Source: an uncultured Chloroflexia bacterium
GTDB lineage: Bacteria > Chloroflexota > Limnocylindria > Limnocylindrales > CSP1-4
Length of the DNA: 21,490 nucleotides
NCBI GenBank assembly: GCA_963749705.1
Contig: CAVVNQ010000012.1
Coordinates: forward strand, 1 to 21,490
Reading direction: 5' to 3'
The position numbers and the translations under genes were made by a program. The notes beneath the pieces are model-generated. The model was not told the origin of the DNA and made no database searches. It saw only the letters and a program-made list of their open reading frames with translations. Positions 993 through 9,535 of the stretch are shown here, in pieces. How positions within the stretch are numbered: the stretch's first letter is position 1; every line of letters starts with the position of its first letter.

Positions 993-2264
993 TCATCCGT
1001 CCCACCGCCGGAACACCAGCGCCGTGTTCTGGCCGCCGAACCCGAACGAGTTCGAGATCCCGGCGTGCAGCGGGCGCCGGGTCGCGACGTTCGGGGTCAG
1101 GTCCAGGCCGGCAGCGTATGCATCGGGTGCGTCGAGGTTGATGGTCGGCGGGACGCATCCTTCGCGCAGCGCCATGATCGTGGCGATGGCCTCGATCGCG
1201 CCCGCGGCGCCCAGGGTATGCCCGATCATCGACTTGTTGGCGGTGACCGCCACCTTCGAGGCGTGGTCGCCGAAGATGGTGCGGATGGCCTGGAGCTCCG
1301 CCTTGTCCCCCTCCGGGGTCGAGGTCGCGTGGGCGTTGACGTGATCGATGTCGGCCGGCTCCATGCCCGCCTTGTCGAGGGCGCGCTGCGCGGCACGGAC
1401 CGCCCCGATCCCCCCGGGTGCCGGAAGCGTGATGTGCGATGCATCGGCCGTCGCGCCGTAGCCCACCAGCTCGGCCAGCGGGGTCGCGCCGCGGGCCTCG
1501 GCGCTCTCGAGCGCCTCGAGGATGACGACGCCGCCACCCTCCCCGATCACGAACCCGTCGCGACCCTGGTCGAACGGCCGTGATGCCGCGGCCGGGTCGT
1601 CGTTGCGCGTGGACAGCGCCTTCATGGACGCGAACCCGCCCATCGTCGCCTCGTGGATCCCGGCCTCCACGCCGCCCGCGATCATGAGGTCCGCATCGCC
1701 ACGCCGGATGGTCTCCCACGCCTCGCCCAGGGCATGGCCCCCGGTGGCGCAGGCGGACACCGTTGCGAAGTTGGGTCCGGTCGCACCGACCGCGATCGCC
1801 ACCTGCCCGGCACCGACGTTGGCGATGCCCATGGGGATGAAGAACGGGGAGATCCGGTCCGGTCCGCGCTCCCCCATCACCAGCACGTTCTCGAACAGCG
1901 TCGACACGCCGCCCAGCCCCGAGCCGACGATCACGCCCGTGCGCGCCGCGCGTTCCCCCTCGAGGCGGCCGGGCAAGCCGGCCGAATCGAGCGCCTGGCG
2001 CGCGGTGACGAGCGCGAACTGGATGTACCGGTCCGTCCGCCGGCGCTCCTTGCGATCCAGCACGTCCGAGGGATCGAAGTCCTTGACCTCGGCGGCGACC
2101 TGCGAGTCGAGGCGGGACGGGTCAAACAGGGTCACGCGGGCGATGCCCGACCGCCCGGCGACGAGGCCGGCCCAGGTCGACTCGACGTCGTTGCCGACGG
2201 CGGACAGGGCGCCCATGCCCGTGACCACCACGCGCCGCGGCCGGCTGGGCCAGGTCCAGGTCAT
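993..2264 (-). CDS. fabF: 3-oxoacyl-ACP synthase II (FabF)
   Basis: RRVVVTGMG N-terminus, catalytic SACATG, HVNAHATST, KSMIGHTLGAAG and SNSFGFGGQN motifs. ATG overlaps the upstream stop. Confidence 0.96.
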   Translation of the reverse strand: MTWTWPSRPRRVVVTGMGALSAVGNDVESTWAGLVAGRSGIARVTLFDPSRLDSQVAAEVKDFDPSDVLDRKERRRTDRYIQFALVTARQALDSAGLPGRLEGERAARTGVIVGSGLGGVSTLFENVLVMGERGPDRISPFFIPMGIANVGAGQVAIAVGATGPNFATVSACATGGHALGEAWETIRRGDADLMIAGGVEAGIHEATMGGFASMKALSTRNDDPAAASRPFDQGRDGFVIGEGGGVVILEALESAEARGATPLAELVGYGATADASHITLPAPGGIGAVRAAQRALDKAGMEPADIDHVNAHATSTPEGDKAELQAIRTIFGDHASKVAVTANKSMIGHTLGAAGAIEAIATIMALREGCVPPTINLDAPDAYAAGLDLTPNVATRRPLHAGISNSFGFGGQNTALVFRRWDG

Positions 2265-3007
2265 CGCACCAGCTTCCCGGTGCGCACGGTCGCGGCCCGG
2301 TACACGTCCCCCGGCAGCCCGCGCGCCGAGATCGCGTTGGCGACGGACATCGCGTCGAACTCGGTGCGCCGGATCTCCGCGACGACCTCGCCGTCCTCGA
2401 TCGTCACCAGCGCCCACGACGCGGTCGGGTCGCCGTCGAACACGTAACCCGCGCTGCCGTCGTTGACGATCACCTTCCAGCCGAGGTCGCGGACCTCGGG
2501 CACGTGCGTGTGACCGACGCACACCACGCGTGCATCGGTGGCGCTGACGCGGTCGAGGATCACGTTGGCGTCGAGCGCCTGGTCGAACCCGCGCGTCTGC
2601 GACCCGGGCGACGCGTGGACGACGAGCACGAGCGTGTCGTCTGCGGTGCGCAGCCGGCGTTCCGCGGGCAGCCGCCGGAGCCAGCCAAGCTGGTCCTCGG
2701 TCAGCTCATCGTGGGCCCATTCGGCCGCGATCTGGACCGCGTCCGGCACGCCATCCGCGTACTGCGGGAAGGCAGCGCCGTAGTCGAAGTCGGCGACCGC
2801 GATGTCCGTGTTTCCCGACACGATCAGGGCACCTTCGGCGTCGAGGGCCCTGAGCGCGTCGACCGCGCCGCCGGGGTCCGGCCCGTTGAGCACCAGGTCG
2901 CCCGCCACGAGGATCGCATCGGGCGAGGCGTCGCGGATCGCGGCCAGCGTCGCCTCGAGCGCGATCAGGTTGCCGTGGACGTCCGAGAGGACCGCGAGGC
3001 GGGTCAT
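2261..3007 (-). CDS. calcineurin-like metallophosphoesterase (YfcE/MJ0936-like)
   Basis: Motifs SDVHGN, GDLV, GNTD, HASP, GHTH and NDGSAG. 4-bp overlaps with fabZ and fabF. Confidence 0.9.
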   Translation of the reverse strand: MTRLAVLSDVHGNLIALEATLAAIRDASPDAILVAGDLVLNGPDPGGAVDALRALDAEGALIVSGNTDIAVADFDYGAAFPQYADGVPDAVQIAAEWAHDELTEDQLGWLRRLPAERRLRTADDTLVLVVHASPGSQTRGFDQALDANVILDRVSATDARVVCVGHTHVPEVRDLGWKVIVNDGSAGYVFDGDPTASWALVTIEDGEVVAEIRRTEFDAMSVANAISARGLPGDVYRAATVRTGKLVR

Positions 3008-3483
3008 CGCAGCGCCCCGGCCGGCGGGATGATGAAGCTCAGCAGGCCCTCGCACGCGACCTCGCCGTCGACCGACGCGACCCCGCGTCCCTTGCCGAAG
3101 CGGCGGCCCAGCTTGTCCATCGTGACCTCGAGCCGCACCACGTCGCCCGGGACGACGACCCGCTTGAAGCGGACCTCGTCGATGCCGGCGAACAGGCCGA
3201 TCCGATCCCCGAAGCCGGGCTGCCGTGCGACGTAGACGGCCATCGTCTGGGCCAGCGCCTCGACCTGGAGGACACCCGGCATCACCGGCAGCCCGGGAAA
3301 GTGACCCTGGAAGAACCATTCGGTCGCGGTGACGGCCTTGATGCCCACGATGCGCTTTGCGTCCGGGTCGTAGTCCACGATCCGGTCCACCAGCAGGAAC
3401 GGCCAGCGGTGCGGGATGAGTCCCTCGATCTCGCGCACGGAGTGCACGGTCTCGGCGGCGGACGCGGGGTTGGCTTCGGTCAC
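3004..3483 (-). CDS. fabZ: 3-hydroxyacyl-ACP dehydratase FabZ
   Basis: IPHRWPFLLVD and FFQGHFPGLPVMPGVLQVEALAQ motifs. GTG start at 3483 chosen from the upstream GGAG. Confidence 0.95.
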   Translation of the reverse strand: MTEANPASAAETVHSVREIEGLIPHRWPFLLVDRIVDYDPDAKRIVGIKAVTATEWFFQGHFPGLPVMPGVLQVEALAQTMAVYVARQPGFGDRIGLFAGIDEVRFKRVVVPGDVVRLEVTMDKLGRRFGKGRGVASVDGEVACEGLLSFIIPPAGALR

Positions 3484-3568: not shown

Positions 3569-4936
3569 TCACGATCGTTCGAAGCCTTCGAGGAAGGCGC
3601 CGCTGCCCACGCGGTCGAGGAGGTTGGTGGTGAACTTGCCTTCGAGGAACGGCTCGGAGTCGAGCAGCGCCCGGTGGATCTGGGCGTTGGTGATCACGCC
3701 TTCGATCACGAGCTCGCCCAGGGCAGCCCGGCCGCGGGCGATCGCCGCGTCGCGATCGGGGCCCCAGACCACGAGCTTGCCCAGCAGGGAGTCGTAGAAC
3801 GGCGGCACCTCGTAGCCGGCGTACGCGTGGGTGTCGAACCGGACACCGGGCCCCCCGGGCGCGTTGAACCGCTCGATCGTGCCCGCGCCGGGCCGGAAGT
3901 CGTGCTCCGGATCCTCGGCGTTGATCCGGAACTCGATCGCGTGGCCACGCTGTTCGATGTCCGCCTGGGTGAAGCCCAGCGGCTCGCCGGCGGCGATCCG
4001 GATCTGGGTTGCCACGAGGTCCATCCCGGTCAGCATCTCGGTCACCGGGTGCTCGACCTGGATCCGGCAGTTGATCTCGATGAAGTACGCGTTGCCGTCG
4101 CCGTCGACCAGGAACTCGAGCGTGCCGAGGTTCTCGTAGCCCGCCGCGACGACCGCGCGGATGGCCCGTTCGGCAAGCTCGAGGCGGCCGGCGGCGGACA
4201 TCGCGGGCGATGGTGACTCCTCGAGGATCTTCTGGTGGCGGCGCTGGACCGAGCAGTCGCGCTCCCACATGTGGACACCGTTGCCGAACCGGTCCACGGC
4301 GACCTGGACCTCGATGTGCCGGTTGTCCTCGAGCCATCGCTCCAGGTACAGCGCATCGTCACCGAAGGCCGCCTTCGCCTCGGACCGGCAGATCGGCAGC
4401 ACGGCCGCCAGCTCGCGCGGGGAACGGACCATCCGCATGCCCTTGCCGCCGCCGCCGGCGGACGGCTTGATCAGCACCGGGTATCCGATCTGCTCCGCCT
4501 GCGCGAGCGAATCCGTCTCGTCGCCCAGCAGGCCCGAGCCCGGGATCGTCGGCAGCCCGTGGGCGGCCATGAGGCGGCGCGTCTCCTCCTTGGAGGCAAA
4601 TCGCTCGAGCACGTGGGCGGGCGGCCCGATGAACGTGAGGTCGTGGGCGCGAACGACCTCGGCGAACGCGTCGTCCTCGCTCAGGAACCCGTATCCCGGA
4701 TGGACGGCGTCGCAACCGGTGACGACCGCAGCCGAGATCACCGCGGGCGCGGACAGGTAGGAGCGCCGGGCATCGGCAGGCCCGATGCAGATGGCCTCGT
4801 CGGCGAGCATCGCGGGCAGCGAATCGCGGTCCGCCTCGGAGTACGCGACGACCGCCTCGATCCCCAGCGTCCGGCACGCACGGAGGATGCGCAGGGCGAT
4901 CTCGCCGCGGTTCGCGATCAGGATCCGGCTCACCAT
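3569..4936 (-). CDS. accC: biotin carboxylase subunit of acetyl-CoA carboxylase
   Basis: ILIANRGEIA, HPGYGFLSE, GGGGKGMR, ERDCSVQRRHQK, RIQVEHPVTE and RINAED motifs. Confidence 0.96.
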   Translation of the reverse strand: MVSRILIANRGEIALRILRACRTLGIEAVVAYSEADRDSLPAMLADEAICIGPADARRSYLSAPAVISAAVVTGCDAVHPGYGFLSEDDAFAEVVRAHDLTFIGPPAHVLERFASKEETRRLMAAHGLPTIPGSGLLGDETDSLAQAEQIGYPVLIKPSAGGGGKGMRMVRSPRELAAVLPICRSEAKAAFGDDALYLERWLEDNRHIEVQVAVDRFGNGVHMWERDCSVQRRHQKILEESPSPAMSAAGRLELAERAIRAVVAAGYENLGTLEFLVDGDGNAYFIEINCRIQVEHPVTEMLTGMDLVATQIRIAAGEPLGFTQADIEQRGHAIEFRINAEDPEHDFRPGAGTIERFNAPGGPGVRFDTHAYAGYEVPPFYDSLLGKLVVWGPDRDAAIARGRAALGELVIEGVITNAQIHRALLDSEPFLEGKFTTNLLDRVGSGAFLEGFERS

Positions 4937-4939
4937 CGG

Positions 4940-5518
4940 TCAGGCACCCCCGGCCGGGTCGCCGGCACGATCGGCGCCGGAGGGGTCCGCCTCGATCGTC
5001 GCGATGGGCTCGCCGTACTCGACCGCCTCGCCACCCGGGACGAGGACCTCCACCAGCGTCCCGTCGATCGGCGCGACCACGTCCTGCGGGATGCCCAGGA
5101 GGTCCACGATCCCGATCCGGTCACCGGCGCGAACCCGGGTGCCGGGCTGGGCACCGGGCCTGAACACGCCGACGGCCGGCGACAGCGCCATCGACCGATT
5201 GGGCGTCGGCGCCTCGCGGGTCGGGTCAGCCGGCGCGGTTGCTGCCTCGCGCGGGCTGCGGCCATCGCGCTCGAGCGCATGGGGTGCGGTCCGGATGCGA
5301 TCGGCGCGGCGCCCGGACGGCGATGCCGCGGCGGTGCCGGTCGATCGCCGGAGGCGCACGCGCCAGTCGCCCTCGCGGACCTCGAGCTCGCCCAGGCCGC
5401 TCGTGTTGAGCTTCTGGACCAGGGCGGGCACGAGGGTCTCGGCGAGCCGCGCCAGCCCGGCGTGATCCGCCTCCCGCTGCTCCGGGGTGCGCTCGCCTTG
5501 CGTGTGGGGATCGGGCAT
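4940..5518 (-). CDS. AccB/BCCP-like protein lacking the biotinylated lysine (BADC-like)
   Basis: AccB-type N-terminus (LNTSGLGELEVREGDWRVRLRR), a linker and a biotinyl-fold C-terminus (SPAVGVF...GDRIGIVDLLGIPQDVVAPIDG...VEYGEP). EAMK is replaced by DLLG. Confidence 0.85.
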   Translation of the reverse strand: MPDPHTQGERTPEQREADHAGLARLAETLVPALVQKLNTSGLGELEVREGDWRVRLRRSTGTAAASPSGRRADRIRTAPHALERDGRSPREAATAPADPTREAPTPNRSMALSPAVGVFRPGAQPGTRVRAGDRIGIVDLLGIPQDVVAPIDGTLVEVLVPGGEAVEYGEPIATIEADPSGADRAGDPAGGA

Positions 5519-5521
5519 CGC

Positions 5522-6553
5522 CTAGACGTCCTCGCGGGCTGGTGGCTCGTCGCGTCGCCCCACCGGGAGCGGCGGCGCGGGGATGGCCCGCTGGCCGGCC
5601 TCGATGAGCCCACGGATCCGATCCGCGAGCCCGGTGCGGGGCGGGGTGATCGGCGCCGGCGCCGGGCCGGCAAGCTCGGTGAACGCGCCAAAGGAACGGT
5701 ACCGGCGATAGCGCTCGTCGACCAGGCGATCGAGCGGGATCGCGGCCAGCCGGTCGAGCTGCTCGAGGATCACGACCTTGAGCCGGCGGGCCGTCTCGGC
5801 CGGATCCGCGTGCGCGCCCTCGCCGGGCTCCGGGATCACGATGTCGACGACACCCAGCTCGCGCTGGTCGTCGGCCGTCATCCGCATCGCCAGCGCCGCC
5901 GTCGGCGCCTCGTCGGCCGTCCGCCACAGGATGCTGGCACACCCCTCGGGCGAGATGACCGCGTACACCGCGTTCTCGAGCGCGAGCACGACATCGCCCA
6001 CCGCGATCGCGAGCGCCCCACCGGACCCGCCCTCGCCGGTGATCACGGTCACGATCGGCGTCCGCAGCCGGGTCATCAGCCCGACCGAGCGTGCGATGGC
6101 ATCGGCGATGCCGCGCTCCTCGGACTCCGATCCGGGGTGCGCGCCGGGAACGTCGACGAAGGTGACCACCGGGAGCCCGCAGCGCTCGGCCAGCTCCATC
6201 ACCCGCATCGCCTTGCGATAGCCCTCGGGATGCGGCATCCCGAAGTTGCGCCGGACGTTCTCCTCGGTGTCCGCGCCCTTCTGCTGGCCGATGACGGCGA
6301 CGCGGCGGCCCTCGATCCGGGCCAGGCCGGCCACGATGGCCTCGTCGTCGCCGAACAGCCGGTCGCCGTGGAGCTCGATGAACTCGTCGGCGATGACGGC
6401 GAGGATCTCGTTGATCCGCGGCCGGCGCAGGTTCCGGGCGAGCTGGACACGCGCCCAGACGGCCGCCTTCGGGTCGGCGGCGACCTCCTCGACCGCGTCG
6501 TCGCCGTGCTGGTCGTGGCCATCCCTGCCCCGACCGAGGATCCGGTCAACCAT
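5522..6553 (-). CDS. accA: acetyl-CoA carboxylase carboxyltransferase alpha subunit
   Basis: ELHGDRLFGDD, RNFGMPHPEGYRKAMR, GEGGSGGALA and ISPEGCASILW motifs. The start overlaps the end of accD. Confidence 0.96.
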   Translation of the reverse strand: MVDRILGRGRDGHDQHGDDAVEEVAADPKAAVWARVQLARNLRRPRINEILAVIADEFIELHGDRLFGDDEAIVAGLARIEGRRVAVIGQQKGADTEENVRRNFGMPHPEGYRKAMRVMELAERCGLPVVTFVDVPGAHPGSESEERGIADAIARSVGLMTRLRTPIVTVITGEGGSGGALAIAVGDVVLALENAVYAVISPEGCASILWRTADEAPTAALAMRMTADDQRELGVVDIVIPEPGEGAHADPAETARRLKVVILEQLDRLAAIPLDRLVDERYRRYRSFGAFTELAGPAPAPITPPRTGLADRIRGLIEAGQRAIPAPPLPVGRRDEPPAREDV

Positions 6554-7397
6554 TTGCGGCCTCCGCGGGATGCGGCGCAAGGAAGCGGAGCAGCTGGGCG
6601 AGCTCCCGTCGCAGGTCCGGGCGCTGGACGACACGGTCGACGAAGCCGTGGCGGAACAGGAACTCGGCGCGCTGGAAGCCCGGCGGGAGCTCCTGGCCGA
6701 TGGTCCCCGCGCCGACCCGGGCGCCCGCGAACCCGATCAGGGCGTTGGGCTCGGCGAGGTTGACGTCGCCCGTCGCCGCGTACGACGCGAACACGCCACC
6801 CGAGGTGGGGTCCGACATCACCGATACGAATGGGACGTGCGCCGGGCGCAGGCGCTCGATGGCGGCCATCGTCTTGGCCAGCTGCATCAGCGCCAGCGAG
6901 CCCTCCTGCATCCGCGCACCCCCGGACGCGGACACGATGACCAGCGGGACGCGCTCGGCCAGCGCGCCTTCGGCTGCCCGCGCCACCTTCTCGCCCACGA
7001 CGGCGCCCATCGAGCCGCCCATGAACGCGAAGTCCATGACGACGATGGCGATCCGCTGGCCCTCGATCCGGGCGAAGCCCCACACGGCCGCGTCGCGCAG
7101 GCCGGTCGCGAGCTGGGCCGCGGCAATCCGGTCCGGGTAGGGCTTCTGGTCCACGAACCCGAGCGGGTCGAGGCTGACCAGCCCGGCGTCCTGCTCCTCG
7201 AATGTCCCCTCGTCGAGCAGCTGGGCGAGCCGTGCACCGGCGGACAGCCGGAAGTGGTGACCGCACGACGGGCACACGCTCATCGCCTTCTCGAGCTGCT
7301 TGTTGAACAGCTGCTCCTCGCACGATGGACAGCGCGTCCACATCTTCTCGGGATAGGTCTCGCGCCGGGACCGGAACGAGGGAAAGCGCATCGGCAT
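6546..7397 (-). CDS. accD: acetyl-CoA carboxylase carboxyltransferase beta subunit
   Basis: Zinc ribbon CPSC...CPSC, FMGGSMG, SGGARMQEG, PTSGGVFAS and FQRAEFL motifs. The start could be 7397 or 7391. Confidence 0.96.
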   Translation of the reverse strand: MPMRFPSFRSRRETYPEKMWTRCPSCEEQLFNKQLEKAMSVCPSCGHHFRLSAGARLAQLLDEGTFEEQDAGLVSLDPLGFVDQKPYPDRIAAAQLATGLRDAAVWGFARIEGQRIAIVVMDFAFMGGSMGAVVGEKVARAAEGALAERVPLVIVSASGGARMQEGSLALMQLAKTMAAIERLRPAHVPFVSVMSDPTSGGVFASYAATGDVNLAEPNALIGFAGARVGAGTIGQELPPGFQRAEFLFRHGFVDRVVQRPDLRRELAQLLRFLAPHPAEAANG

Positions 7398-7999
7398 CAG
7401 GCAGGCCCTCCGATGCCGCCGCTCGACAGGCCCACCGGGGCGGGCGGGCCGGGGTGGGCGGCGCGGCCGGGCAACGGGAGCGCGGTCCGTCCGGCCGACG
7501 CGCGGCTGGCGCGCCAGGCCACCCAGGCGACGCCGACGATCGAGATCGCTGCCGACGTCAGCGCCCCGCCGACGATCAACGGGCGGCGCGTGGCGGGGAG
7601 GTGCGGTGCGTCGGGCATCGTCGTCTCGTCGGCCGGGTCCGCGTCCCCGGCGATGATCGCGGCCAGCCACGGGTCGACGGCCTCACGACCCGCGCCCGCG
7701 GGCGGGAACGGGAGCAGCGCCCCGCCACCACCGGCTGCACCTGCGCCACCTCCCTGGGCGACCGCGAACGCCGCCAGGCGGGTCGCCAGGCGCTCCTCGA
7801 ATCGGAACGAGGGATGGACGCGGACGAGGGCCCGGCGGAGCAACCGCGCGGCATCGCGGATCTCGGGGGCGAGGACGGCATCGGCCGGCGCGTCGTCCGC
7901 ATGGCGCTCCGCGGCGGCGAGCAGCGCGTCCAGGTACCGGTCGACGACCAGCGCCTCGACCGCGTCGTGATCTCGCGGCGTCCCGCTGCCCCCGATCAC
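7397..7999 (-). CDS. hypothetical single-pass membrane protein, putative anti-sigma factor
   Basis: The start overlaps the sigma stop (GTGA) and the stop overlaps the accD ATG. Helical N-terminus with PSFRFEERLATRL and one hydrophobic segment, LIVGGALTSAAISIVGVAWVAW. The function is inferred from position and topology. Confidence 0.7.
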   Translation of the reverse strand: MIGGSGTPRDHDAVEALVVDRYLDALLAAAERHADDAPADAVLAPEIRDAARLLRRALVRVHPSFRFEERLATRLAAFAVAQGGGAGAAGGGGALLPFPPAGAGREAVDPWLAAIIAGDADPADETTMPDAPHLPATRRPLIVGGALTSAAISIVGVAWVAWRASRASAGRTALPLPGRAAHPGPPAPVGLSSGGIGGPA

Positions 8000-8640
8000 G
8001 AGCGACCGGTCCGGCGATCCCGCCCGAGCTCCCGGGCGACGGCGCCCAGGGCACGATGGATCAGGACCCGGACCGCGCCCTCGGACCGGCCCAGGACCGC
8101 GGCGATCTCGGCGGTGCTCATCTCGTCCACGAACCGCAGCAGGAGGGCACGCCGCCGGTCCTCCGGCAGGCCGCGGAGCGCCCGCAGCGCCTCGGATGCC
8201 TCGTCGCGCGTGGTCGCCTGGCCCTCGAGGTCCATCCGGTCCGGGATCGAGAGGCCCGCGCCGAGCGCCGTGTCCAGCGAGGTCTCCGGCCGCCGGCGGC
8301 GGCTCCGGCGCTCATTGGCGATCACGTTGCGGGCAATCCGGAACAGCCACACGCGGAAGGTCGATGCCTCCGGGCCATCCGCGACCTGCGCCTGCTCGCG
8401 GAACCCGGGCATCGCGGCAAGCGCGCGCAGGAACGTCCGCTCGGTCGCGTCCTCGGCGGCGTGATGGTCGGCGAGCTCATAGAGCGCGTAGGCGTACACC
8501 TGGGCCACGTACTTCCGGTACAGGGGGTCGAATCGGGCCGGATCGCGGCGGGCCGCCTCCACGAGGACCCGGTCGCGGTCGAGCGCAACGACGCCTCCCC
8601 TCGTCGGCTGCTCTCGTCTACCAAACACCGGGCGGGCCAT
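7996..8640 (-). CDS. ECF-type sigma-70 family RNA polymerase sigma factor
   Basis: Region 2 (AEDATERTFLRAL...FRVWLFRIARN) and region 4 (LPEDRRRALLLRFVDEMSTAEIAAVLGRSEGAVRVLIHRA). No region 1 or 3. Confidence 0.92.
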   Translation of the reverse strand: MARPVFGRREQPTRGGVVALDRDRVLVEAARRDPARFDPLYRKYVAQVYAYALYELADHHAAEDATERTFLRALAAMPGFREQAQVADGPEASTFRVWLFRIARNVIANERRSRRRRPETSLDTALGAGLSIPDRMDLEGQATTRDEASEALRALRGLPEDRRRALLLRFVDEMSTAEIAAVLGRSEGAVRVLIHRALGAVARELGRDRRTGRS

Positions 8641-8644
8641 CGCG

Positions 8645-9535
8645 TTACACCCCCGCCGACGATGCGAGCCGCACCCGGACGACCTCGCCGGCATGGACGA
8701 GCCACGGCGTGCCGGACGCGGCCTGATCCCGGACCACGAGCGCGCCGCTGGTCGCGTCGACGCCGATCGCCATCAGCGCCACGCCGGCGTCCTGCCCGTA
8801 CCCCTCGAGCAGCACCAGTCGGTCCGTCGTCGCCTGCCGCTCGGTCCAGGTCGCGATGTCGAAGTACCCCGCGCGCAGGGCGTCGACCCGGCCCTCGAGG
8901 CGATCCACGAACCCTTCGAGCAGGGCACGCCGGTCGATCGGCCGCCCGCCCGACGCCGCGCGCAGGCTGGTCATCGTCGGCGCGAGGTCGGCCGGGAAGT
9001 CGGCCGGATCCCAGTCGGCGTTGATCCCGATCCCGACGACCACGCGCACATCGGGCGTTCCGAGCCCGTCGCTCTCACCCAGGACCCCGGCCAGCTTGCG
9101 CAGCTCGAGCGGCCCGGCCAGCCGCGCCGCCGCCTCGGCGGCGTCGACCGTGCCGGTGAGGAGCGCGTGCGGGCCGCGGATCTCGACCACGAGGTCGTTG
9201 GGCCACTTGAGCCGGATCGAGCCGACGGGCAGGCCGGCGGCATCCTCGGCCGCGTCGCACATCGCCAGCGCGACCGTCGCAGCCAGCCGCCACGTCCGGT
9301 CGGGGGCGAGCCAGTGGGGACGGAACCCGAGCGACGCCAGCAGCGCGGCTGCGGGTGGTGCCTGCCACGTCCGGTCATGGCGCCCGCGGCCCGCCGTCTG
9401 CTCATCGGCGGTGGCGAGGCAGACCTCGGGGGTTCCGCTCGACAGCCACCCGCGGACGATGTCGTTGGTCGAGCCGACGGTCGCGAAGTGCTCGACGCGG
9501 CTGAGCAGGGTGGTGGCGGGACGGGCGTCGGTCAC
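8645..9535 (-). CDS. birA: biotin--[acetyl-CoA-carboxylase] ligase without an N-terminal DNA-binding domain
   Basis: GSTN, EQTAGRGRHDRTW, KWPNDL, KLAGVL and VGIGIN motifs. GTG start. Confidence 0.93.
   Translation of the reverse strand: MTDARPATTLLSRVEHFATVGSTNDIVRGWLSSGTPEVCLATADEQTAGRGRHDRTWQAPPAAALLASLGFRPHWLAPDRTWRLAATVALAMCDAAEDAAGLPVGSIRLKWPNDLVVEIRGPHALLTGTVDAAEAAARLAGPLELRKLAGVLGESDGLGTPDVRVVVGIGINADWDPADFPADLAPTMTSLRAASGGRPIDRRALLEGFVDRLEGRVDALRAGYFDIATWTERQATTDRLVLLEGYGQDAGVALMAIGVDATSGALVVRDQAASGTPWLVHAGEVVRVRLASSAGV

Follow-up and report, generated by a model that had tools for sequence, protein, structure and literature searches.

The stretch of DNA analysed here (the window, 21,490 nucleotides) comes from a soil Chloroflexota bacterium of the class Limnocylindria and carries on its minus strand a fatty-acid synthesis cluster in the order accD-accA-X-accC-fabZ-metallophosphoesterase-fabF-accB-fabH, of which fabH is represented by its start only. 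Our subject is gene X, which encodes a paralogue of AccB, the carrier subunit (biotin carboxyl carrier protein, BCCP) of acetyl-CoA carboxylase (ACCase). A first-pass annotation of the window had described X as an intact open reading frame (ORF) directly upstream of accC with 3-bp gaps on both sides, and this is what we found: the accA stop ends at 5522, the accC start lies at 4936, and the 192 codons of X are uninterrupted. As it had also stated, a genuine AccB with a lysine-bearing hairpin, EAMKLFNE, is encoded in the same operon.

X lacks the lysine that carries biotin in BCCP. In a BLASTP alignment of X with the AccB of the operon, GDRIGIVDLLGIPQDVVAPIDG pairs with GQIIGLIEAMKLFNEIKSDLAG, with the AccB lysine opposite Gly142 of X; the Gly142 codon reads GGC at 5093-5095 (gcc on the plus strand). 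A phmmer alignment with E. coli BCCP (4hr7_B; E 1.7e-10, X residues 30-176) likewise sets DLLGI opposite EAMKM. The alignments and the codon agree with the replacement reported in the first-pass annotation, as does the distribution of lysines with its claim that the domain has no other: the barrel is lysine-free, and the sole lysine of X, K36, sits in the N-terminal helix. Biotin acceptance by X at the canonical site is predicted to be impossible. The lipoyl-lysine of lipoyl domains and GcvH has no counterpart in the barrel either, and GcvH and E2 entries match X weakly. We also considered X as a carrier of some other acylation on a different lysine, and rejected this, as K36 is helical and, among 120 listed homologues of X, one has no lysine at all and 53 have exactly one.

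In the rest of its architecture X resembles an ACC-type BCCP. Pfam family PF00364 matches residues 120-175 at 27.3 bits against a cut-off of 22.1, and the NCBIfam BCCP model TIGR00531 matches residues 32-176 along profile positions 8-155 of 156. The phmmer alignment, which begins at residue 26 of the 4hr7_B chain, takes in both the N-terminal segment and the barrel, and an hhalign comparison of 24 X with 13 AccB sequences paired X 30-176 with AccB 70-218 (97.5% probability, E 5e-12). These three comparisons support the claim that the N-terminal segment is retained. This segment contains the conserved motif SGLGELEVREGDWRxRLRR, and 18 columns between R10 and R58 are invariant in the alignment of 24 X sequences; ahead of it stands a conserved, basic extension, MPDPxxPGDRTPAQRxADHA, which is absent from BCCP. 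An AlphaFold2 (AF2) model of X, built from a 24-sequence alignment with a mean predicted local distance difference test score (pLDDT) of 72, places Gly142 at the turn that joins strands 134-140 and 143-148; among the Foldseek matches of the model, the biotinyl domain of E. coli, 1bdo, ranks first (E 1.4e-6, TMt 0.76).

The description of X as having full BCCP architecture stands for the biotinyl-domain fold of the barrel, the N-terminal segment and the Ala/Pro linker, but not for the thumb between strands 2 and 3, which is deleted: in hhalign, GAPSPGAT of AccB faces a gap of 8 residues in X, and in phmmer the stretch of E. coli BCCP around TPSPDAKA faces a gap too. X is also without the biotinyl-lysine of the (E)AMKM hairpin, and its TIGR00531 score of 51.1 bits falls short of the equivalog cut-off, 115.2, which the true AccB narrowly misses as well (108.7).

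Table. Gene X, its domains and the neighbouring genes in the window
Feature	Position	Strand	Remarks
Gene X, lysine-less BCCP paralogue, 192 aa	4940..5518	minus	including TGA stop; Pfam, NCBIfam, BLASTP, phmmer, AF2, Foldseek, hhalign
X N-terminal BCCP-type segment, residues 12-57 (helix 12-40, beta-hairpin 44-57)	5348..5485	minus	AF2 pLDDT 67-86
X linker, Ala/Pro/Arg-rich, disordered, residues 61-103	5210..5338	minus	pLDDT <50; length variable
X C-terminal biotinyl-type beta-barrel, residues 108-176	4991..5197	minus	without Lys, without thumb; pLDDT ~97
X former biotinylation hairpin VDLLGIPQDV, residues 138-147	5078..5107	minus	Gly142 in place of biotinyl-Lys
accC, biotin carboxylase, 455 aa	3569..4936	minus	starts 3 bp past X stop
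accA, carboxyltransferase alpha	5522..6553	minus	
accD, carboxyltransferase beta	6546..7397	minus	zinc ribbon
True accB, 221 aa	295..960	minus	between fabF and fabH; EAMKLFNE hairpin with Lys, thumb kept
fabZ (3004-3459), metallophosphoesterase gene (2261-2995), fabF (993-2267)	993..3459	minus	between accC and accB; limits approximate
200-aa ORF	7397..7999	minus	no Pfam match
ECF-type sigma-70 gene	7996..8694	minus	
BPL/LplA-family ligase gene, probably birA	8645..9535	minus	

The replacement of lysine by glycine is conserved far beyond chance. A word-indexed protein search with X gave 1264 proteins at E <= 1e-3, and all of the 120 listed (56-100% identity) have Gly at the lysine column, within VDLLGI[PAG]Q[DE]V. 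Among 1.84 billion 50%-identity representatives, a profile search retrieved 5834 matches at E <= 1e-3 (501 at E <= 1e-10); the best 150 of these have Gly in 143 cases, Ala in one and Lys in none, the other six being fragments with a gap at the column. Relatives in public databases are labelled as Candidatus Limnocylindrales/Limnocylindria or as Chloroflexota metagenome-assembled genomes (MAGs).

A related-locus search in species-representative genomes found 72 loci, 71 from MAGs labelled Chloroflexota/Limnocylindria and one chance match (L072). The order accA-X-accC is present in 68 of the 71, and the remaining three end at contig ends; fabF-accB was found in 63 and the complete nine-gene order in 59. 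The window and these loci yielded 48 intact X ORFs, all with Gly at the site (GGC in 36, GGG in 12). At the remaining 23 loci X gave partial profile matches or had no nearby start codon; the majority of these either are the most distant loci or come from long-read assemblies in which neighbouring genes are frameshifted too. Across the class, a strong match to X was present in 46 of 46 sampled genomes (families f1-f4, the genome of the window, G000, included), and all eight loci from families f2-f4 have accD-accA-X-...-accC with the Gly site.

Selection on X was estimated by the Nei-Gojobori method (NG86). Over 1081 pairs the ratio of non-synonymous to synonymous substitution rates (dN/dS) was 0.30 in the N-terminal domain, 0.64 in the linker, 0.34 in the barrel and 1.04 in the C-terminal tail, values that are crude because synonymous sites are near saturation in this GC-rich DNA. 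For the closest pair, the window and L001, the ratios were 0.09, 0.30, 0.13 and 0.36, respectively. Of the ten columns of the hairpin VDLLGIPQDV, nine do not vary among 24 sequences. Purifying selection acts on both folded parts of X, and no stretch of the protein is more constrained than the rebuilt hairpin. The first-pass annotation had proposed to test whether the loss of lysine and the accA-X-accC order are conserved with dN/dS below 1, as proved to be the case, and had named orthologues that keep the MK motif or are decaying as evidence to the contrary; the homologues inspected gave no sign of either, with Lys at the site in none of them and dN/dS of about 0.3 in both folded domains.

To see X in the context of its phylum we drew on a sample of 401 Chloroflexota genomes, 239 of which had a match, canonical BCCPs included (this tally takes in three unpublished genomes, G173, G272 and G145, on which no other claim is based). 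Outside the class we inspected 50 loci from 50 genomes and 24 families, picked from the best-scoring matches, so that their counts do not measure prevalence. The BCCP is lysine-less at 32 of them (11 families; Gly 13, Asn 12, Arg 4, Ala 2 and Met 1 at the site) and lysine-bearing at 18 (13 families). The lysine-less gene lies in a pepP-efp-BCCP-xseA neighbourhood at 30 of the 32 loci and directly adjoins efp at 27; a canonical lysine-bearing BCCP (EAMKxMNEI) occupies the same efp/xseA site at 11 of the 18 lysine-bearing loci. All five genomes checked, from three families with lysine-less genes, have a second small BCCP with EAMK[VS]FNE directly after fabF, and the window is alike in this. The genome of the window also has pepP-efp-xseA, where xseA follows efp immediately and no BCCP gene intervenes (L163, G000:C2:165500-174500). 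Two lysine-less genes of family f9 (L094 and L095; one with Arg, the other with Asn) represent a third genomic context, in which neither pepP nor efp nor xseA occurs within ~2.5 kb.

A search with one lysine-less member of the Asn type listed 120 proteins, none with Lys at the site, among them proteins of the cultured Ktedonobacteria Thermogemmatispora and Dictyobacter that NCBI names 'acetyl-CoA carboxylase biotin carboxyl carrier protein'. Across the lysine-less BCCPs the hairpin has diverged into lineage-specific motifs, with EALG or EVLG in other Chloroflexota. The spacing in the thumb region indicates that basal Asn- and Arg-type members keep a segment of thumb length and that Gly types are shorter, an indicative result only, as the automatic anchors misaligned some AccB sequences. 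Look-alikes of X in the ESM Atlas were confined to Chloroflexota PF00364 clusters and one Armatimonadota cluster, and our literature searches turned up no description of efp-linked lysine-less BCCPs.

We then placed X in a maximum-likelihood (ML) tree, computed with IQ-TREE (LG+G4) from 101 columns of 77 small BCCP-type proteins. The tree splits 47 lysine-less from 30 lysine-bearing sequences cleanly, with the X proteins of Limnocylindria nested among the former, but support is modest: the ultrafast bootstrap (UFBoot) for the split is 67 when read from one side and 89 from the other, and that for the X clade is 41. FastTree needs two state changes, and three after removal of the ten hairpin columns. 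Given these results we dropped the claim of a strict single origin and limit ourselves to a few old losses; the loss of lysine is old and involved one to three events. X is a member of an old, phylum-wide set of lysine-less BCCPs and not a local oddity of the acc operon.

The above results show that X is a real, conserved, non-biotinylatable paralogue of BCCP; what it does has to be read from its sequence and surroundings. The explanation we favour, with confidence a little above even, is that X is a non-catalytic subunit or modulator of ACCase, which would bind the biotin carboxylase (BC) AccC and possibly the true AccB, by analogy with the plant BADC proteins, and which would descend from an old Chloroflexota lineage of lysine-less BCCPs normally placed after efp. 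The genome layout suggests that X is co-transcribed in accD-accA-X-accC and translationally coupled to both neighbours. Through its retained N-terminal segment X might take the place of BCCP in the BC-BCCP subcomplex, or pair with AccB. The barrel is predicted to be unable to shuttle CO2, since it has neither the lysine nor the thumb, so that X would limit or organise the subcomplex. As a decoy, it would fill BC sites and limit flux; as glue, it would stabilise the BC-AccB subcomplex. The near invariance of the rebuilt hairpin suggests that the hairpin tip itself may be a contact surface.

Several observations weigh against a role in ACCase. X is conserved no better than AccB and far less than the catalytic subunits, median best high-scoring segment pair identities over the 71 loci being 56% for X, 61% for AccB and 86% for AccC. 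None of the 32 lysine-less loci outside the class has an acc gene adjoining the BCCP gene, so the ancestral function of these proteins need not concern ACCase, and the efp placement elsewhere somewhat weakens the argument from operon position. The part given to the N-terminal segment is our reading of biochemical work, in which E. coli BCCP shortened by ~30 residues at its N-terminus reportedly no longer forms a complex with BC. In the Foldseek listing, the BCCP chain of the E. coli BC-BCCP complex (4hr7_G) has 77 residues, the C-terminal domain only. The rebuilt hairpin and the lost thumb correspond to surfaces that canonical BCCP shows to BC, carboxyltransferase and BirA, and docking of X in the manner of BCCP may have been lost with them. 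Evidence of expression is thin: in 20 public sequencing runs the word share is at most 0.15, and at 85% likeness these show mostly the conserved accC of relatives; one 184-nt contig from an RNA library falls within X, is 91% alike and possibly derived from DNA. This signal is too weak to establish transcription or habitat.

Two alternatives would give X a different kind of task, and we consider each of them unlikely. X could be a dedicated regulator of acc expression which, freed from catalysis, senses the occupancy of AccC and represses or derepresses the operon. Such a role would suit the N-terminal segment, kept as the best-conserved part of X (dN/dS 0.30; 18 invariant columns), as well as the basic extension that BCCP lacks, and a passage in PMC3896788 describes autoregulation of E. 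coli AccB through its N-terminal domain. However, no DNA- or RNA-binding domain was detected in X with Pfam or NCBIfam, conservation is equally strong in the N-terminal part and in the barrel and hairpin, neither of which a purely N-terminal function needs, and the efp-linked relatives lie far from acc genes; regulation of this kind would also be compatible with a role as an ACCase subunit, not exclusive of it. Alternatively, X could act outside ACCase, as an all-purpose protein-binding adaptor on a biotinyl/lipoyl-type barrel, tied for instance to elongation factor P (EF-P) or to another process of the ancestral pepP-efp-xseA neighbourhood, in which case its place among the acc genes would be a historical accident or the remnant of an old accB-accC pair. 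Both the efp neighbourhood of the lysine-less genes outside the class, with no acc gene beside them, and the divergence of the hairpin into lineage-specific motifs point this way. Against it, the efp linkage can be explained by history, because the canonical BCCP occupies the same site at 11 of the 18 lysine-bearing loci, and efp-accB linkage occurs in other phyla too. Moreover, the one lineage with the gene elsewhere has it in the acc operon, coupled to accC, at 68 of 71 loci, and X keeps the BCCP-specific N-terminal segment.

It seems less probable still that X targets BirA, as a pseudo-substrate that titrates or regulates it, or docks a PII-type regulator, rather than binding BC. The BPL/LplA-family gene lies in the same neighbourhood ~3 kb upstream, the hairpin tip, the part of BCCP that BirA recognises, is the most conserved stretch of X, and PII is reported, in PMC12706156, to interact with BADC and BCCP in Arabidopsis. 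Yet the hairpin of X is unlike the BirA recognition motif, of which only flanking V/I and acidic positions remain, no PII gene was seen in the window, though no search aimed at PII was made, and nothing else speaks specifically for the idea. That X is merely a functionless relic of a duplicated accB, decaying or drifting neutrally, is barely credible, even though the catalytic lysine and the thumb are gone and X evolves faster than the catalytic subunits. Its ORF is intact wherever assembly quality allows, both folded domains and the invariant replacement hairpin are under selection, and the gene is present in every sampled genome of the class. These conservation data exclude neutral decay.

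ACCase catalyses the committed, rate-setting step of fatty-acid synthesis; antibiotics and herbicides are directed at it, as is metabolic engineering. BADC, of which Arabidopsis has three members (BADC1-3) and Chlamydomonas one, is treated as a plant and algal speciality, and its mode of action, as an inhibitor or as assembly glue, is disputed. Passages of PMC13585458 and PMC11926652 describe plant BADC as an inactive BCCP homologue that binds BC; the former proposes that it competes with BCCP for BC, the latter that it acts as a glue or cap for BC-BCCP and is 'unique to the plant htACCase'. X and BADC are both BCCP homologues that lack the biotinyl-lysine and exist beside a genuine BCCP in a host with a four-subunit heteromeric ACCase. 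The hairpin has changed in a similar way, as far as the short motif printed in PMC9578262 allows comparison: the Brassica BCCP-like protein has ...YIEQLGG... where BCCP has ...IIEAMKL..., that is, LG for MK, and X has DLLGI, with EALG or EVLG in other Chloroflexota. In contrast to BADC, X is bacterial and operon-encoded, coupled to accA and accC, and has its thumb deleted; for BADC it is documented that the protein binds BC and affects activity, properties that are putative in X. The link between the two is an analogy, and X a putative bacterial analogue of BADC. The earlier proposal of a bacterial BADC-like regulator thus holds as regards a conserved, selected BCCP paralogue that cannot be biotinylated at the canonical site, while its link to BADC goes no further than likeness. 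The full-text literature that we searched, which did not take in supplements or the full text of Conrado et al. 2024, describes no lysine-less BCCP in bacteria; that paper, on the evolution of ACCase regulatory subunits, deals by its summary with autotrophic eukaryotes.

Other known systems resemble X in part. With AccB/BCCP (TIGR00531; 1bdo, 4hr7) X shares the two-domain layout and fold, with homology over both domains, and a place directly upstream of accC; it differs by lacking the biotinyl-lysine and the thumb, by its score (51 versus 115 bits) and by occurring in an organism with a separate true AccB. The efp-linked BCCPs belong to the same lineage as X in the ML tree, lack the lysine and coexist with a canonical, fabF-linked BCCP. 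They differ in standing between efp and xseA instead of in an acc operon, in having Asn, Arg, Ala or Met at the site as often as Gly, and in the thumb-length segment kept by basal members. The non-catalytic epsilon subunit of actinobacterial acyl-CoA carboxylases, said in a passage of PMC11926652 to act as 'glue', and B. subtilis RfaA (YqhY), which is reported to target AccC, are small accessory proteins whose genes adjoin carboxylase genes and which act on the complex, but their folds are unrelated to that of X and they are not BCCP homologues.

If X does act on ACCase, it may be one instance of something broader. We entertain, as a tentative idea held with clearly less than even confidence, that heteromeric ACCase of bacteria has an old fifth component, phylum-wide in occurrence, in the form of dummy biotin carriers, kept for a structural or regulatory job on BC and, in Limnocylindria, drawn into the acc operon; plants would have arrived at the same solution, including the replacement of MK by LG in the hairpin, by convergence or, less likely, by inheritance of a bacterial lysine-less BCCP. 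A non-biotinylated BCCP protomer would then belong to the general design of the BC-BCCP subcomplex and would not be peculiar to plants. A bacterial counterpart of BADC would offer a much simpler system in which to settle the mechanism of such subunits: the operon of X encodes all four catalytic subunits too, and X has relatives in cultured Ktedonobacteria. There is, in addition, a problem of annotation. Because public sources label lysine-less proteins 'acetyl-CoA carboxylase biotin carboxyl carrier protein', the wrong carrier gene may be chosen in metabolic reconstructions of Chloroflexota.

As for the neighbouring genes, the product of accC is the only stand-alone BC among the three BC domains found in the genome, which is 88% complete. 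In the window the TGA stop of X is followed, after one codon, by the accC start in the same frame (TGA CCG ATG; window 4934-4945). This junction, viewed alongside L001 and L037, is not general: elsewhere the spacing varies or the genes overlap out of frame. Nine X-AccC or X-AccA fusion proteins are probably assembly errors, as all are single-member clusters from long contigs, and in the one that we inspected (L007) the departure from its relatives consists of a shift within a G-run immediately ahead of the stop; we rejected a Rosetta-stone reading of these fusions. Gene order varies among families of the class: in f3 and f4, X is separated from accC by an inserted fabD gene (PF00698; L075 6571-7533; L080 7447-8367), and f4 has additional unassigned DNA between X and fabD. 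The metallophosphoesterase gene, of the calcineurin-like type (PF12850/PF00149), is present in 68 of the 71 Limnocylindria loci and in the f2 loci; in the f3 loci fabZ lies directly beside fabF with no metallophosphoesterase gene between them.

Upstream of accD lie the 200-aa ORF, whose stop overlaps the accD start (ATGA), a sigma-70 gene of the extracytoplasmic function (ECF) type and, beyond it, a ligase gene of the biotin protein ligase (BPL)/LplA family. The ECF sigma gene and the ORF resemble a sigma/anti-sigma pair, one that would be coupled to the acc operon. The N-terminal third of the true AccB is a long extension with a repeated VGPGDGAP motif, to which E. coli BCCP has nothing comparable; its start, PVAVGPG, is kept in 13 of 13 aligned orthologues.

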